Below are positions 8,286 to 36,547 of a DNA stretch of 64,000 nucleotides, in pieces. Origin of the DNA: a virus; IMG/VR virus record IMGVR_UViG_3300037882_002024, positions 7,245 through 71,244 of that record, one strand, 5' to 3'. Every line of letters begins with the position of its first letter. Position 1 is the first letter of the stretch. The notes under the pieces were generated by a model, which saw only the letters and a program-made list of their open reading frames with translations, made no database searches and was not told where the DNA came from. The translations under genes were made by a program, and so were the position numbers.

Positions 8286-8889
8286 CAACATTCACGCGAG
8301 CTTCCGTCAGTTCGTGTTGCCTATCGAGAGGCTGCGCCCTAACCCGGAGAACGTGCGCCAGCACGACGAGCGCAATGTCCAGATCATTGCCGATGCGCTA
8401 GAGCGCTTCGGGCAGGACCAGCCGCTCGTGGCGACCAATAACTACCTGCTCGTCAAGGGACACGGGCGCCTGCTCGCCGCCAAAAAATTAGGCTGGACGG
8501 AAATAGCCTGCGTGTTAGTGCCTGACGGCAAGGCTACCGCTACAGCGCGCGCCATCGCCGATCAGCGCGCGTCGGATACTTCCACGTGGGATTTTGCCGC
8601 GCTGGCGCAGGCGGCGCTAGCGTTGCACGCCGACGGGCAGGATATTCACGACTGCGGTTGGGCACCCGGCGAGCTTGCTTTCATCCTTCCCGACACGAAG
8701 CCGAAGACAGCGCAGGCGCCTGCGGTACGCACCACAGCGCCGCGCATGGAAGGCCTGCGCCTTACGCCAGAGCAGCGCCAAGCGTTCGAGGATGCCTACA
8801 AGGTGATCCGCAAAATGGTTGGCGGCGAAGTGAGTGAGGGGCGCGCGCTCGAACTCATCTGTGCCGAGTTCATGTCGGGGGTGCGCTAA
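8275..8889 (+). CDS. ParB N-terminal-domain protein
   Basis: LRPNPENVRQH...ALERFGQDQPLV...GHGRLLAAKKLGW; paralogous to 6499..7131. Confidence 0.8.
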   Translation: MPINNIHASFRQFVLPIERLRPNPENVRQHDERNVQIIADALERFGQDQPLVATNNYLLVKGHGRLLAAKKLGWTEIACVLVPDGKATATARAIADQRASDTSTWDFAALAQAALALHADGQDIHDCGWAPGELAFILPDTKPKTAQAPAVRTTAPRMEGLRLTPEQRQAFEDAYKVIRKMVGGEVSEGRALELICAEFMSGVR

Positions 8890-9341
8890 TGGCTCTGGAC
8901 TGGATGCCGATGGGGGCGCCGCTTGTCGATGCGGCCCCGTTGCCTAATCGGCTGCGCCTGCTGCGTGGCTGGAATCCCGACGAAGATGGGCCGTACCTTG
9001 CAGACGAATACGTCGTTGAGTATTACCAGCCTAATACCAAGTATTACCAAGCGCTCGCGGCGCAACTGCGCACGCAGGCCTTGGCGAATCTCGGCGTGTG
9101 GTTCGTGATCCAGTATTGGGATGACGCGCCCCATGTGCAGTCGTGGCGCACGCACGGTGCGTTTCGGTATTGCTTCGAGGCCCCAGCAGAGTTTGACGAG
9201 CGCGGCCTCGTGCAAGGCGTGAAGGCTGTCGTCGCGATTGTGGGCCGCAAGGACCGCGAAGCCGCCGCCAAGAAGGGGCGCAAGCCCAAGAGCAAGACAC
9301 AGCACGCGCCCAGCCCGCGCAGCGAATGGGAAAAATTCTAA
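8889..9341 (+). CDS. hypothetical protein
   Basis: TAATG coupling to upstream gene; stop lies in the next promoter repeat. Confidence 0.6.
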   Translation: MALDWMPMGAPLVDAAPLPNRLRLLRGWNPDEDGPYLADEYVVEYYQPNTKYYQALAAQLRTQALANLGVWFVIQYWDDAPHVQSWRTHGAFRYCFEAPAEFDERGLVQGVKAVVAIVGRKDREAAAKKGRKPKSKTQHAPSPRSEWEKF

Positions 9342-9376
9342 AAAATAGTTGACATTGTGGCCGCAGATGGTATATT
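9340..9376 (+). promoter_or_regulatory. sigma70-type cassette promoter
   Basis: AAAAAATAG-TTGACA(9349)-16-TATATT with TG extended -10. Confidence 0.85.
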
Positions 9377-9446
9377 GTCTTCACGCAGATGCGAGCGCGC
9401 CCCAGCGCTTAACCGAACCCCTAAGTGGGTTGTCCGCAATCAGTAG

Positions 9447-9857
9447 GTGTTGCGACTTATGGCCGATGACAGATTGCTCCTGATATGCCTCAGCACGCCC
9501 GGCGCGCAGGCCTACTACGATGGCGCAGCCACCTACGCGCAATGGCGCGCTGAGGCCGAATTGCATCACCAAGAACTACTTCTCGTCGTGCGCGAGGCTG
9601 TGAGCTTTTCGCGCACGCGCCTTGAGCCGCCAGAGTTTTTGCAGCACAGGCTTGGAGAGTTTCGGCCGTCCTGCGTGCTGCACTTCGGCGACGGCAAGGC
9701 TGTGCGGTGGGTGTCAGCCTACATACCCGTGGTGGCCGTGAGTGATCCCGGCAATATGCGGCTCGTGCAGGCTGCGACGGAAATAGCCGACATCGCCAAG
9801 GCGGGGTATACGTCTGTGGAAGAGTGCGATGGGTGCGTGACCCTTCGCCGACGCTAA
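9447..9857 (+). CDS. hypothetical protein
   Basis: ORF downstream of promoter; TAA stop supplied by box 9854. Confidence 0.55.
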   Translation: MLRLMADDRLLLICLSTPGAQAYYDGAATYAQWRAEAELHHQELLLVVREAVSFSRTRLEPPEFLQHRLGEFRPSCVLHFGDGKAVRWVSAYIPVVAVSDPGNMRLVQAATEIADIAKAGYTSVEECDGCVTLRRR

Positions 9858-15009: not shown

Positions 15010-15173
15010 TGACCTTGGCGCAAACGGATAACTCTGGATGGTCGTGCGCTGCTGCTGTGATAGTGCTTATCGTCTGTTGTGCGGCGTATTCTATTTACAA
15101 TCGCCGATGCGAGATGAAAGAGCGCACATGGGAAGCCAACGAGAAGCGGCGCAAAGATCGCGGGGCAAAGTAA
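15009..15173 (+). CDS. small single-TM protein
   Basis: TAATG coupling; TM then basic tail. Confidence 0.45.
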   Translation: MTLAQTDNSGWSCAAAVIVLIVCCAAYSIYNRRCEMKERTWEANEKRRKDRGAK

Positions 15174-15179
15174 GTTTAG

Positions 15180-15308
15180 CCCAGAGGCGACGGGGATGGC
15201 GACCCGTTACGATGCCAAGCAGAGATGCACTACGCGATCAGGCGGGCGCTGCAAGTCTGTGCGTTAGCGGGTAAAGGTGCAAGCCGGTTCGATTCCGGCC
15301 CTTTGGGA
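15180..15308 (+). ncRNA. tRNA-like RNA with 8-bp acceptor stem and enlarged central domain
   Basis: CCCAGAGG(15180)/CCTTTGGG(15300) acceptor; D-like arm GACGGG/CCCGTT; canonical T-arm GCCGG-TTCGATT-CCGGC; about 74 nt replace the anticodon/variable arms; intergenic. Confidence 0.6.
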
Positions 15309-15379
15309 TGCCGCAATGACGCGGCGACAGCGCGCAAGCGCTGCAAGCAATATGCGCGCAAGCGCAGAAAGGTTATGCG

Positions 15380-28104: not shown

Positions 28105-28135
28105 AGAAGCGGCCACATGGCCGCTTCTTTTTTTT
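28105..28135 (+). terminator. intrinsic terminator
   Basis: AGAAGCGGCC-ACAT-GGCCGCTTCT followed by T-run. Confidence 0.85.
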
Positions 28136-28145
28136 GGAGTTCATA

Positions 28146-28937
28146 ATGATTCGTTGGCTACTGCGCGTCACAGGCCTTGCCTTCCTGATTCGGCGCACCG
28201 AGTTTAACCGTCCGCGCTTGAGCTTGCAGCTAATCAAGTTTGGCAACGATAGCGAACTCACAGGCCGTTGGACGCTGTGCGTGCTTAACCAGTTCGTGCG
28301 CCTGTGGGATTCACGCACGCCTTTGGTCGATCCTGATGGCATGCTCGACGGCTATGGCGTGTATTACTGCAGCGATTTGAAGACGCTCGTATTATGCTGG
28401 GGTTCCATACGCTCGCGTGGCTCAAGGCATTGGCGTATTCCGATGCCGTGGCAACGACGACGCCTGACGCACGAGGCCTTGCTGAAAGACGGTACGTGGC
28501 GCAAGCTCGCGTGGATTGAGGGCTGGTTGTCATGGCGCGGGCTGCGTTACGCGCAGAGTCCGTGGAAACCAGAAGAGCTTGCAGCCCTTGCAGGCCAGCA
28601 GCCGGACCCGCCTTACCCCGATGTGGTGCCTCAGTGGGTAAACGTGAGGCCGTTCTTTTATCGCTTGCGCAGTGGAGCGCATCAAGATACAGTAGCCACC
28701 ATCACCTGTGACCGATCGAAGTATACTTGGGCGCTATTCTGTTGGTTGCGTTTGCCTATCGTGACGAGGTGCCATCGTGCGCTGTGGTTCAGCTTAGCTG
28801 ACGAGATTGGCGCAGGCGTTGGGAGTTATAAGGGCGGCACCGTTGGCGCAGGCGATTATCTTAAGCGCGGCGAGTTGCCTTTGCTGGGCGCGCTGCGCAT
28901 CGAGATTGAATGGTCGAAGCGCCATCGTTTCGGGTAA
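28146..28937 (+). CDS. Trp-rich hypothetical protein
   Basis: GGAG RBS; 263 codons. Confidence 0.6.
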   Translation: MIRWLLRVTGLAFLIRRTEFNRPRLSLQLIKFGNDSELTGRWTLCVLNQFVRLWDSRTPLVDPDGMLDGYGVYYCSDLKTLVLCWGSIRSRGSRHWRIPMPWQRRRLTHEALLKDGTWRKLAWIEGWLSWRGLRYAQSPWKPEELAALAGQQPDPPYPDVVPQWVNVRPFFYRLRSGAHQDTVATITCDRSKYTWALFCWLRLPIVTRCHRALWFSLADEIGAGVGSYKGGTVGAGDYLKRGELPLLGALRIEIEWSKRHRFG

Positions 28938-30518: not shown

Positions 30519-30818
30519 ATGATTCTCAAACCGGTTGGCGAAAAAATTTTAGTCCGTCTCGACGACGGCGAGCGCACTATCGGCCAGATTGTCTTGCCGG
30601 ACAGCGCCGTGCAGTTCCCGAATCGTGGCGTTGTCGCGGCGTTAGGGGATGGCCGCAACGAAGGCGATGGCCTTCTCCCCTACATGGTCATGGTCGGCGA
30701 CCGCATCCTCTTCGACCGCTATGCAGGCATCGAGGTCACCGGGGCCGATGATGGCAAGCGCTACAAGATGATGCGCGAGCAAGACATCGTTGCCATCGAC
30801 ACAGGAGCAAGAGAGTGA
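30519..30818 (+). CDS. groES: co-chaperonin GroES
   Basis: MILKPVGEKILV...IVLPDSA...GVVAALGDG...VGDRILFDRYAGIEV...MREQDIVA; GAGGAG RBS. Confidence 0.93.
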   Translation: MILKPVGEKILVRLDDGERTIGQIVLPDSAVQFPNRGVVAALGDGRNEGDGLLPYMVMVGDRILFDRYAGIEVTGADDGKRYKMMREQDIVAIDTGARE

Positions 30819-31087
30819 AGAGTATCTTAGATAGCGCGTGCGCTGCGGTGTACGAGTGGAGCGACGGCTCGCAGGTGCGCAAGGTGGGAGAGTTCTGGCT
30901 AGCCATCAAGGTGGACGGCGCCTATCTCACACTCCACGGGTCAACGATGGCTGGGCAGACGCCCGAAAGCCTTCACAATGCGTGTCGCTTTGAAACGGCA
31001 TCACTTGCCGCTGCTGAGTTGCGCCGCAGAGGCCTTGGGCCTGCACGCGAAGAGATGACCACAGAGCCAGCAAGCGCGGGGGCGTGA
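30815..31087 (+). CDS. hypothetical protein
   Basis: GTGA overlap with groES stop. Confidence 0.5.
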   Translation: MKSILDSACAAVYEWSDGSQVRKVGEFWLAIKVDGAYLTLHGSTMAGQTPESLHNACRFETASLAAAELRRRGLGPAREEMTTEPASAGA

Positions 31088-31159
31088 GGCTGGGAGAGCG
31101 CAGCCTCGCTACGCTCTGCCACATGGCGCCGGGGCAAAGTTTTTACAATGCTCCGGCGC

Positions 31160-31201
31160 TTAAAAATAATTAGTTGACATCTGCCGAAGTGATGCTAGGA
31201 T
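31160..31201 (+). promoter_or_regulatory. sigma70 promoter of the ncRNA/tRNA locus with box abutting the -35
   Basis: TTAAAAATAATTAG(31160)-TTGACA(31174)-16-TAGGAT with TG extension. Confidence 0.8.
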
Positions 31202-31207
31202 ACTTAC

Positions 31208-31921
31208 ATCAAAGACGCAAGGCCGATGCAAATGTGCTGACAGCTTTGCCGATGAGATGCTCAGGAGTCAGAGTATAACTGACCACGATCTGAGCCGTGC
31301 GTTATTACGGCCCGCCGAGGAACAGGGGCGCACCTTGTCCGCTCTGGAGTCCGAGGGTAAATGACCGCGCGGGAAGGCGTTTAACGAGCGGCGTTGGGAG
31401 TGTTGCTTCGGCAGCACAGCGCCTAAAAAGCATCCGGTGGTGGGAGACCTTAGCGAGAGCTACGAGGCACCTGAAAAACATCCGGCGCGAGAGCGCCTAA
31501 AATATCGGTTGCGTTCTTCTGGTGAACAGGCCAGACCTGTGCATTCCTGCTGCACGAACGCATTTGCGGGCCGTCTTAGCGCTTGTTGGAAACCTGCGCT
31601 ATGGCATTCCTTGGCCCGCACCCCTAAACTGGCTTGGTGTTTTGTTGTAAGGGCGCCAAGTCAGGGGCTGCAAGGAATGGTCATCTTGCAGCCCATTTGA
31701 ACGCTAGCGCGCGAAAGCTCTTGATTGGGCAACGGGAGCAAGTAGCGCGCTAGCTACCTAATACCCTTAAATGGGTAAGGCGAAGGCTTCGGCCTAGCCA
31801 TCACTAGGCCTGTGCGCCGCTCAGACATGACGCACAGACAATCCTAGGCCACCGCAGCAGTCCCTCCGTTTGCTGCGGTGCAAGGTGAAAGGCCTGCTGA
31901 AAGGCTGAGTAACCTTCTTCA
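31208..31921 (+). ncRNA. large, highly structured ncRNA candidate (GOLLD/ROOL-like size and context)
   Basis: No RBS-led ORF; many helices: GTGTTGC-TTCG-GCAGCAC, AGC-GAGA-GCT, GGCGC-GAGA-GCGCC, TGCGGGCC/GGCCCGCA, 12-bp 31630-31663, GGGCTGCAAG/CTTGCAGCCC, GCTAGCGCGC/GCGCGCTAGC with GAA/AGTA internal loop, ACCGCAGCA/TGCTGCGGT; directly upstream of tRNAs. Confidence 0.7.
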
Positions 31922-31995
31922 GTGGCACTTGTGTAAGGGAAACATACCGGCTCGTTAGGCCGGCGATGGGAGTTCGATTCTCTCGTGCCACACCA
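31922..31995 (+). tRNA. tRNA-Asn(GTT) with encoded CCA and atypical C33
   Basis: GTGGCAC/GTGCCAC acceptor, GTGT/ACAT D-stem, CCGGC-TCGTTAG-GCCGG, GGGAG-TTCGATT-CTCTC, ACCA 3' end. Confidence 0.85.
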
Positions 31996-32060
31996 CACAC
32001 GCCGCAGTCGCGGCTCACGATGCTCTGTAAAGGGCGCTCCGCAAGGGGTTGACAACGATG

Positions 32061-32102
32061 CCCGGCTGGTCGGTTTTCGAGGCCAAGGCCAGCCGGGTTT
32101 TT
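32061..32102 (+). terminator. terminator-like hairpin
   Basis: CCCGGCTGGTC...GGCCAGCCGGG followed by T5. Confidence 0.6.
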
Positions 32103-32175
32103 GATGCGATAGCTTAAACGGTAAAGCAACCGCCCTCTAAGCGGCACTACTGAGGTTCGACCCCTCTTCGCATCC
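32103..32175 (+). tRNA. tRNA-Arg(TCT)-like with atypical C33
   Basis: GATGCGA/TCGCATC acceptor, GCTT/AAGC D-stem, CCGC-CCTCTAA-GCGG, GAGG-TTCGACC-CCTC. Confidence 0.75.
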
Positions 32176-32176
32176 T

Positions 32177-32283
32177 ATCCACGAAGCCGGAAACGCGGAC
32201 GCGCGACGTTAGGCACGTTCTGGCCGCAATGCTGGCAGCGGGTTTACGGAACCAATTCGCAGGTGCAACGCCTGCCGTGGATA
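32177..32283 (+). tRNA. tRNA-like RNA (GTT loop) with ~41-nt branched variable region
   Basis: ATCCACG/CGTGGAT acceptor, CCG/CGG D-stem, CGCGC..ACGTTAG..GCACG anticodon-like arm, T-arm GCAGG-TGCAACG-CCTGC. Confidence 0.55.
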
Positions 32284-32285
32284 CT

Positions 32286-32358
32286 GCGCTCTGTGGGCAA
32301 CCGGAGAAGCCGCCCCGCTTAGGTGGGGAGAATGCTGGTTCAATTCCAGCCGGGCGCA
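32286..32358 (+). tRNA. degenerate tRNA-like RNA, anticodon ambiguous (CTTAGG loop)
   Basis: GCGCTC/GGGCGC acceptor with bulge, GGC/GCC D-stem, CCCCG/TGGGG stem with 6-nt loop, GCTGG-TTCAATT-CCAGC. Confidence 0.6.
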
Positions 32359-32366
32359 TTGCAAGT

Positions 32367-32469
32367 AGGGTCGTGCCCGAGTTGTCTAAGGGTGACCGGA
32401 TGCAAGACGCAACCTCTGGCGCACCGGGCCGATAGAGGGTGCGCCACAGGTGCGAATCCTGTCGCCCTG
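32367..32469 (+). tRNA. class-II-like tRNA-like RNA with poorly paired anticodon arm (GCA loop) and long variable stem
   Basis: AGGG/CCCT acceptor extended by GCAAGT/GCTTGC; D-arm TGCCCGAGTTGTCTAAGGG; variable stem TGGCGCACC/GGTGCGCCA; T-arm ACAGG-TGCGAAT-CCTGT. Confidence 0.55.
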
Positions 32470-32488
32470 CTTGCTTTTTAGGTGCATC

Positions 32489-32725
32489 ATGAAGGCCATC
32501 TTTTTGCTCGTAACACTTCTCGGCGCAGGCTGCGCGCAATCCAACCTCGAAGACGCTCAGCGGCGCTGGCAGCCCCAGCATGGTCGCGAGCAAGAGCGCA
32601 AGACGTACACAGTAAAGCGTCGCACGCCATCAGGCGTCATCATCACCTACACCGTGACGCCTAACTACAAGCCGGAAGACTTCAAGCATGCGCGCACCTA
32701 CAAGGTGCCTGTGCGCGCTGACTAA
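32489..32725 (+). CDS. small predicted lipoprotein
   Basis: MKAIFLLVTLLGAGC lipobox; TAA stop in box 32722. Confidence 0.6.
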   Translation: MKAIFLLVTLLGAGCAQSNLEDAQRRWQPQHGREQERKTYTVKRRTPSGVIITYTVTPNYKPEDFKHARTYKVPVRAD

Positions 32726-32783
32726 ATTATTTTAGCCACTTCTCAGAAAAATAGTTGACAGAGCGCAAGGGGGCGGCTATAGT
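32722..32783 (+). promoter_or_regulatory. box plus cassette promoter
   Basis: Box 32722, AAAAATAG-TTGACA(32755)-17-TATAGT; leader hairpin CAAGGCCA/TGGCCTTG; AGAGGCAAG RBS. Confidence 0.9.
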
Positions 32784-32832
32784 ATCTTCACAAGGCCAAC
32801 AACTGGCCTTGAACCAAACCAAGAGGCAAGCC

Positions 32833-35949: not shown

Positions 35950-36547
35950 CGGGCGTGAAGACGCGCTGAGCGAGACGCTGTGCAGCCTCGCGGAGTCGGA
36001 TTGGCCAGAGATGGCCGTGGTGGTCCGCGACGTGCATCGCCTGCCCGACCGCAAGGCCTCGCAGACTGCTACGGCGCTGCGCATCTTCGAGATGGCGCAA
36101 GGCCCCGAGTGCGACTACGTAGCCTTCTGCGAGGACGACATCCTGTTCAACAAGTCGATCTACGAGAATCTGTGCAACTGGAAGCCTCTGCAAGACGGCG
36201 CGCTGGTGGCGTCGGCGTACCATGATAAGGCTGTAGAGAAGGCGCCCGGTAACACGATTCTCGTGCCCTACGACCGCGTGGCAGGCTCGCAATTTTTGCT
36301 TGTGAAGAAAAGCTGGCTACCCGAATTGCTTGCGTGGTGGCCTTGCGTCGGCGACGACCTGATGCAAGACCTGCGCGTGTACCGGGCGCTTGGCATGCAA
36401 CACTCGCATGTCTACTTGCACGCGCCGACACTCGTGCAGCATCAGAGCAGGCCTTCGACGTGGGGCGGCGGGGCGCACCGTAGTCCTGTGTGGAATCCTT
36501 TCTGGCGGCACGACGAAAAGATTTTAGTCCATTCTGAAAAAAAATAG
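35918..36547 (+). CDS. glycosyltransferase-like protein (GT-A fold)
   Basis: MYLMTCDGRE, YVAFCEDDILF (xED/DxD-like), PTLVQH. Confidence 0.6.
   Translation: MKIRMYLMTCDGREDALSETLCSLAESDWPEMAVVVRDVHRLPDRKASQTATALRIFEMAQGPECDYVAFCEDDILFNKSIYENLCNWKPLQDGALVASAYHDKAVEKAPGNTILVPYDRVAGSQFLLVKKSWLPELLAWWPCVGDDLMQDLRVYRALGMQHSHVYLHAPTLVQHQSRPSTWGGGAHRSPVWNPFWRHDEKILVHSEKK

Follow-up and report, generated by a model that had tools for sequence, protein, structure and literature searches.

Our results indicated that positions 31208-31921 of this viral DNA are best described as a modular, non-coding region, which comprises a weakly folded 5' part, three tandem tetraloop hairpins with CCUAAAA-type linkers, and a 400-nt row of ten hairpins. 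A promoter precedes these 714 nt, a tRNA-Asn directly follows them, a coding signal is absent, and the local hairpins carry tetraloops that are specific to the + strand. On this basis we modestly favour the reading that the region gives rise to a real, structured hairpin-array RNA that would be co-transcribed with unusual phage tRNAs. Taken as a whole, the locus is best explained as a genuine non-coding transcription unit that belongs to an orphan tailed phage from freshwater. This supports the central proposal of an earlier note on this DNA, namely a structured + strand non-coding unit that runs from promoter to terminator and abuts tRNA-Asn in a tailed phage.

The window (the whole 64,000-nt stretch analysed here) comes from an IMG/VR virus record of 87.7 kb, and the sequencing runs that contain the stretch are freshwater metagenomes. 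Tailed-phage genes in the window include a portal fused to a C39 peptidase and MuF, a prohead protease, and an intein-bearing terminase. Almost all genes are encoded on the + strand. When genes were mapped by codon score, 100 genes were found with just eight gaps of at least 250 nt between them. The longest of these gaps (31088-32488; 1401 nt, with the next longest at 504 nt) encloses the 714-nt region. The 3' side of the RNA island is closed by a small lipoprotein gene (32489-32725; 78 aa) that has an AGGTG ribosome-binding site, a signal peptide ending in LLGAGC, and no Pfam or PHROG family match. We also note an Acb3-like (CBASS inhibitor) gene and a GroES-like gene (28134-28937 and 30519-30818, the latter a 99-aa form in the source annotation) that are located 1-3 kb upstream of the RNA region.

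The promoter is of the sigma-70 type and lies on the + strand at 31174-31201 (TTGACA, a 16-nt spacer, TAGGAT, extended TG), with a predicted start near 31208. The consensus match that had been reported at 31174 was confirmed, and the site was additionally found to belong to the phage's own repeated promoter family. This family includes 12 exact copies of ATAGTTGACA in the window, all on the + strand; downstream of each copy lie, in turn, a -10 box, a leader of 40-60 nt, and a conserved CCGAGGCAAG ribosome-binding site. The copy at 31174 reads TTAGTTGACA; its -10/start region (TAGGATACTTACATC) is almost identical to TAAGATACTTACATC at 36544, and TA(G/A)GATACTTACATC is common to both promoters. 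Neither a ribosome-binding site nor a start codon was found downstream of the 31174 promoter.

Many sites in the window (~39; 77 strand-wise matches vs. 1.8 expected) carry a palindromic box, CTAAA-N4-TTTAG, e.g., those at 32722, 34660, 41641, 45043, and 21119/21188. The RNA unit had been placed under the control of the regulator of this box, a proposal that was not supported: no copy of the box occurs at the 31174 promoter within 3 mismatches, and the nearest ones are at 30539 and 32722. Judging from the sequence, this suggests that the RNA unit, unlike the neighbouring cassettes, is probably not under that regulator.

All structural modules of the region are read on the + strand. The 5' segment (31208-31388) is weakly structured, with two probable hairpins at 31217-31249 and 31259-31295. 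Three tandem hairpin units follow at 31389-31506; they are closed by GGYG/CRCC, tipped by UUCG, GAGA, and GAGA, and each is followed by an A-rich linker (CCUAAAAAGCAUC, CCUGAAAAACAUC, and CCUAAAAUAUC). Their general form is GGYG-hairpin-CRCC and then U(A/G)AAAA(N)(C)AUC. Units 1 and 2 have UGGGAG in common and are one compensatory pair apart (C-G to U-A), which is the sole covariation-like signal available and is anecdotal.

The row of hairpins begins with a three-way junction (31510-31562), in which a 7-bp closing stem and two hairpins (one of 6 bp with a loop of 6 nt, the other of 5 bp with a loop of 7 nt) were predicted with probabilities of 0.96-0.97. It is followed by the tiered hairpin H1 (31565-31620; 8+3+6+3 bp, a GGA loop, and a 7-nt 3' internal loop, AUUCCUU) with its CCCCUAAA linker, and by the abutting hairpins H2 (15 bp, including five G-U pairs) and H3 (11 bp, 8-nt loop) at 31629-31694. 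In hairpin H4 (31703-31754, then a UACCUAA linker), a 10-bp and a 7-bp helix surround the internal loop GAAA/AAGUA (31713-31744). The loop-E-type internal loop that had been described at these positions is present between two helices with a pairing probability of ~1.0, and is loop-E-like by sequence only. Hairpins H5-H9 (31762-31916) complete the row as a 5-bp hairpin, a C(UUCG)G hairpin, a 5+7 bp hairpin, an 11-bp hairpin with a 9-nt UCCCUCCGU loop, and a 5+5 bp hairpin, the last of which ends 5 nt upstream of tRNA-Asn. Stems of 7-15 bp were found in the region, in line with the 8-12 bp initially described.

Folding statistics located the structure mainly in this 3' row. The 714 nt as a whole gave a fold z of -4.7 on the + strand and -3.1 on the - strand. 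For 31622-31921, z was -6.69 on the + strand (0/200 shuffles as good) and -4.18 on the - strand, with folding energies of -141.7 and -125.5 kcal/mol, respectively; for the whole region and for this 3' part, the + fold exceeds the - fold in stability by 16-28 kcal/mol. When the window was scanned with 200-nt windows on both strands (638 windows), 31608-31807 on the + strand ranked second (z = -6.9), while 31808-32007 reached -3.0 and 31208-31607 ranged between +0.5 and -1.0. The description of the region as dense in helices is therefore borne out for ~31510-31916, to which the excess folding is limited and where ten local hairpins stand back to back, and fails for the first 300 nt (31208-31507; z = -0.91), which 34 of 200 shuffles equalled. 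In the partition function, the robust parts are the three-way junction and nine more hairpins at 31565-31916, separated by linkers of 0-8 nt, with pair probabilities of 0.9-1.0 for the local helices of 31510-31916.

Signals that depend on the strand were also detected. With a minimum stem of 4 bp, hairpins that end in a GNRA or C(UUCG)G tip numbered six on the + strand of 31208-32102 and zero on the - strand, against a background mean of 0.72 per 895 nt; six was reached solely by windows overlapping this locus. The UUCG loops seen earlier are present at 31407 and 31788, and the + strand of the 64-kb window has only three C(UUCG)G hairpins, two of them at this locus. With regard to the GNRA loops listed in the earlier note, those with GAGA stand (31455 and 31489), the GAAA loops proved to be internal or junction loops instead of hairpin tetraloops, and the GCAA hairpin exists (32041) but lies 3' of the tRNA, outside the 714 nt. 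The linker motif CCUAA occurs four times in the region (31422, 31496, 31623, and 31757), each time directly 3' of a helix. Its background is 0.25 per 714 nt, a value that is biased low in coding sequence because the motif contains a stop codon (~0.6 from base composition, by our estimate). As sequence features, these strand-specific signals support a putative + strand RNA, and together with the more stable + fold they are signs of selection on the RNA itself instead of on the DNA.

Relatives of the region were sought in several ways. No match was returned by blastn in 50,697 phage genomes or 72,556 plasmids, and scans of IMG/VR with four motif patterns returned only chance hits or unrelated tRNA arrays. 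A 19-mer scan of JGI metagenomes gave only two chance hits, and a 20-mer scan of GTDB genomes gave none. The spurious ORFs of the region, used as protein queries, were not on record and had no homologues. Among the flanking genes, no relatives were found for the GroES-like and downstream genes. Five homologues (38-46% identity) were found for the 348-aa gene, with no similar RNA at their loci; alignment of this gene against IMG/VR returned nothing. Capsid relatives were absent from bacterial genomes and numbered twelve in IMG/VR, all fragments, with no tRNA in the five largest records. The phage lineage is nearly unsampled. Overall, DNA search, motif scan, flanking-gene synteny, and translated search yielded no homologues of 31208-31921, and hence no covarying set. 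A related 117-kb phage contig (L006) has a 787-nt gene-free stretch at 8774-9560 (= L014:18354-19142; z = -5.8), directly upstream of its homologue of the 348-aa gene. This stretch has no sequence similarity to 31208-31921 and consists of long perfect hairpins flanked by A- and U-runs, like stacked bidirectional terminators.

It is possible, though we consider it unlikely, that the region is a functionless spacer, either left over where cassettes are prone to recombination or serving simply as a long leader for the tRNA operon, whose hairpins would be incidental, old terminators, or DNA palindromes. The phage is rich in promoter-driven cassettes and repeat-mediated rearrangements, no homologue was found that would show conservation, and the comparable stretch of the related phage resembles a terminator stack. 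Moreover, the - strand of 31622-31921 also folds well (z = -4.2), i.e., the folding signal is partly strand-symmetric, and DNA-level palindromes are a possible source of part of it. However, six GNRA/UUCG tips on one strand and zero on the other are not expected from DNA palindromes or decay, and the hairpins, as read from the sequence, have no U-tails. The region likewise contains no relics of a promoter, box, or leader and no trace of a paralogue pseudogene, and no other gene-free gap in this densely packed genome is as large.

It appears quite improbable to us that the region gives rise to one large ornate RNA of a new class, which would be functionally analogous to GOLLD or ROOL and have one tertiary fold, perhaps multimeric. 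The expected size of such an RNA (~0.7-0.9 kb) and its link to a tRNA would suit the locus, since size, phage origin, and tRNA adjacency fit the GOLLD/ROOL context (10.1101/2024.12.08.627333). The many tetraloops and the loop-E-like internal loop are also in its favour, as is the minimum free energy (MFE) structure, in which a large multibranch domain is closed by two 9-bp helices (31386-94/31814-22 and 31297-305/31827-35). Yet by our estimate chance would give several such 9-bp matches in a sequence of 714 nt, and these long-range helices change partners once the tRNA is added to the fold. The pseudoknot proposed in the earlier note (AGGAATG at 31672) fared no better: 31670-31678 and 31604-31612 share a 9-nt complementarity of a kind that chance would produce about once in 714 nt, and the pairing is in competition with an 11-bp stem whose probability is 0.97. 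Pairing of the leader with the tRNA-trailer did not exceed that of shuffled or natural 30-mer controls, and a leader-trailer clamp was rejected at this control level. Furthermore, the first 300 nt have no excess folding, and the region has neither homologues, and hence no covariation, nor Rfam similarity. With long-range pairs and pseudoknot at chance level, the folding models support a string of independent local hairpins, not one ornate fold.

A coding role for the region, with one or several small proteins, is very improbable. ORFs of 34-87 aa are present in 31208-31921 (35-87 aa on the + strand), but their codon log-odds are all negative (-0.07 to -0.43, vs. +0.14 to +0.64 for real genes), and no Shine-Dalgarno sites or GAGG-type ribosome-binding sites, the phage's usual form, could be read in the sequence for them. 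They had no match in Pfam or PHROGs, and none is called as a gene in a collection of 15 billion proteins; the 87-aa ORF had 0 phmmer hits among 1.8 billion representatives. Comparison with the phage's paralogues left no pseudogene trace, and the candidate of a decayed paralogue was dropped. The initial reading of about 710 nt without a credible ORF was upheld by these results.

A divergent member of a catalogued family (GOLLD, ROOL, RNase P, tmRNA, group I/II intron, or tRNA array) would match the phage setting, the tRNA neighbours, and the length, but can be regarded as effectively refuted at the level of sequence models, given that cmscan of 31000-32800 against all 4227 Rfam 15 families (gathering score, and permissive filters with E <= 10) returned three tRNAs plus noise, with no GOLLD, ROOL, RNase P, tmRNA, or group I/II intron, and that ARAGORN found no tmRNA and no extra tRNA. 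The kinship with GOLLD or ROOL that had been suggested for the region fell with this search, in which neither model had a hit even at E <= 10. Three further candidates were rejected. A hidden tRNA or tRNA-like array in 31208-31921 had no RF00005 hit at E <= 10 and none from ARAGORN, the UUCG tips are tetraloops, not 7-nt T-loops, and the sequence of the 714 nt shows no acceptor-like stem that ends in CCA. For a CsrB/RsmZ-type (CsrA) sponge, GGA occurred 9 times vs. a background of 8.9 per 714 nt, and ANGGA once vs. 2.2. A type III antitoxin (ToxI-like) repeat RNA would be expected to have tandem repeats of ~34-36 nt; the three units here are irregular (46, 48, and 24 nt) and had no Rfam hit.

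Sequencing runs provided some indications of expression. One metatranscriptomic freshwater library contained a single 135-nt insert (31221-31355) with Illumina adapters on both sides, and the rest of the 3 kb compared was uncovered in this run. A 31-mer index search retrieved 15 RNA or probable-RNA runs from nine studies, with 4-13% of the region's sampled 31-mers. The word counts were the same for the 714-nt region and for a 1251-nt query; therefore, all shared 31-mers are inside 31208-31921 and none are in the tRNA part. The RNA or probable-RNA libraries with a few exact 31-mers of the region come from several organisms and from unrelated samples. One fragment and these k-mer shares are weakly suggestive of an expressed, fairly abundant RNA, and need to be interpreted with caution because the runs were found by this very sequence and DNA carry-over is possible. 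In contigs from four runs, the identical phage alone was represented, at very low depth in freshwater DNA runs, and hence no sequence variants were available.

Downstream of the region, the tRNA-Asn(GUU) at 31922-31995 (+ strand) was confirmed; it has an encoded CCA and a C instead of U at position 33 (C33). A spacer at 31996-32059 with three small hairpins (tips AGUC, GUAA, and GCAA) leads to the terminator-like hairpin at 32060-32102, also found as previously described, which consists of a 12+5 bp hairpin at 32060-32098 and then U5 and ends directly before tRNA-Arg(UCU) (32103-32175; also C33). The fold z of 31996-32102 is -3.4. No promoter of its own was found for tRNA-Arg, and the latter therefore probably depends on read-through. 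The terminator-like hairpin before it is either leaky or a processing/stability element, and the extent of the unit is therefore uncertain. Three further elements follow on the + strand: a tRNA-like element at 32176-32283, an odd tRNA at 32286-32358 whose anticodon loop has 6 nt, and, at 32361-32474, a tRNA look-alike of class-II-like form with a disrupted anticodon arm (z = -3.6) that ends in U5. The first and the last of these have acceptor-like closing stems and T-arm-like hairpins and were missed by both Rfam and ARAGORN.

Phage tRNAs with C33 seem to be recurrent, as suggested by matching strings in other phage contigs. The Arg(UCU) anticodon-arm string CCCUCUAAGCGG was found in 19 IMG/VR contigs of large phages (L031-L049), one of which (L037:4034-4106) carries it in an otherwise canonical 68-bit tRNA with the loop CCUCUAA; the Asn loop string CUCGUUAG was found in two further phage tRNA arrays (L015:7648-7675 and L016:6933-6962). 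Elsewhere in the window, a tRNA-like element at 15170-15310 combines a perfect T arm (GCCGGUUCGAUUCCGGC) with an acceptor-like stem that encloses a long insert, matched nothing in Rfam beyond a sub-threshold tmRNA fragment hit, and is followed by two GCAA hairpins (15334 and 15358). A Pistol ribozyme hit (L046:1141-1201; 44.8 bits, gathering 34.5) was obtained within a tRNA array on a 126-kb IMG/VR contig from an unrelated phage.

Returning to the hairpin-array RNA, we propose that host RNA polymerase would start at the consensus-like promoter of the phage's family, in a copy without the palindromic regulatory box. The transcript would comprise the ~714-nt RNA, tRNA-Asn, and the short hairpin spacer up to the strong hairpin and U5 at 32102, and read-through would reach tRNA-Arg and the three tRNA-like elements. 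RNase P matures the 5' ends of tRNAs. A cut at the 5' end of tRNA-Asn (31921/31922) would probably free the upstream RNA by analogy with this mechanism, and since the array ends 5 nt before tRNA-Asn, cleavage would define the 3' end of that RNA. The hairpin modules may then persist as stable processed pieces that act as protective or processing elements, or as decoys that bind proteins or nucleases. They would be made alongside phage tRNAs with altered anticodon loops, for translation take-over or counter-defence.

The 1.3-kb island looks like an RNA module directed at translation or at tRNA-targeting defences. The locus is of interest for its promoter, which is strong and apparently unregulated, for a hairpin-array RNA of unusual length, and for two C33 tRNAs and three tRNA look-alikes; together these features point to an RNA-based module for take-over or counter-defence. 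A bolder proposal, which at present seems rather doubtful, is that the 31208-31921 RNA or its 400-nt core founds a new class of tRNA-linked phage RNAs that would be released by RNase P and would serve during infection as a stable assembly or decoy beside tRNAs with altered anticodon loops. Large structured RNAs by phage tRNA islands (e.g., GOLLD and ROOL) belong to the least understood RNAs of bacteria and phages, and each independent example informs the link to tRNAs; for the time being, the orphan status of this RNA limits its value.

Compared with known systems, the closest in setting is GOLLD (RF01998), a phage or prophage RNA of several hundred nt with many hairpins that is often found within tRNA islands or next to them and in some cases encloses a tRNA (10.1101/2024.12.08.627333). 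The locus described here is similar in that it lies on a phage contig, is of similar length, has many hairpins, and has a tRNA-Asn 5 nt downstream. It differs in having no covariance-model match at any threshold and in its supported structure, which is a row of local hairpins; GOLLD has a conserved 3' domain, pseudoknots, a tertiary fold, and a multimeric cage, whereas long-range pairs at our locus are at chance level. ROOL (RF03087) is a ~0.6-kb phage or prophage RNA near tRNA islands, without a known protein partner (10.1101/2024.12.08.627333). Our locus is also in a phage and near a tRNA island, but has no match to the ROOL model, and the multi-pseudoknot architecture of ROOL is unsupported here, with the proposed pseudoknot at chance level. 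Phage T4 provides another comparison. Its species 1 and 2 RNAs are stable, small, structured non-tRNA RNAs (single RNAs of ~120-140 nt) that are co-transcribed with the tRNA cluster and freed from the tRNA precursor by tRNA-processing enzymes. The region studied here is 714 nt long, with at least 13 hairpins, and its likeness to the T4 species would lie in being a structured RNA that is made together with phage tRNAs.
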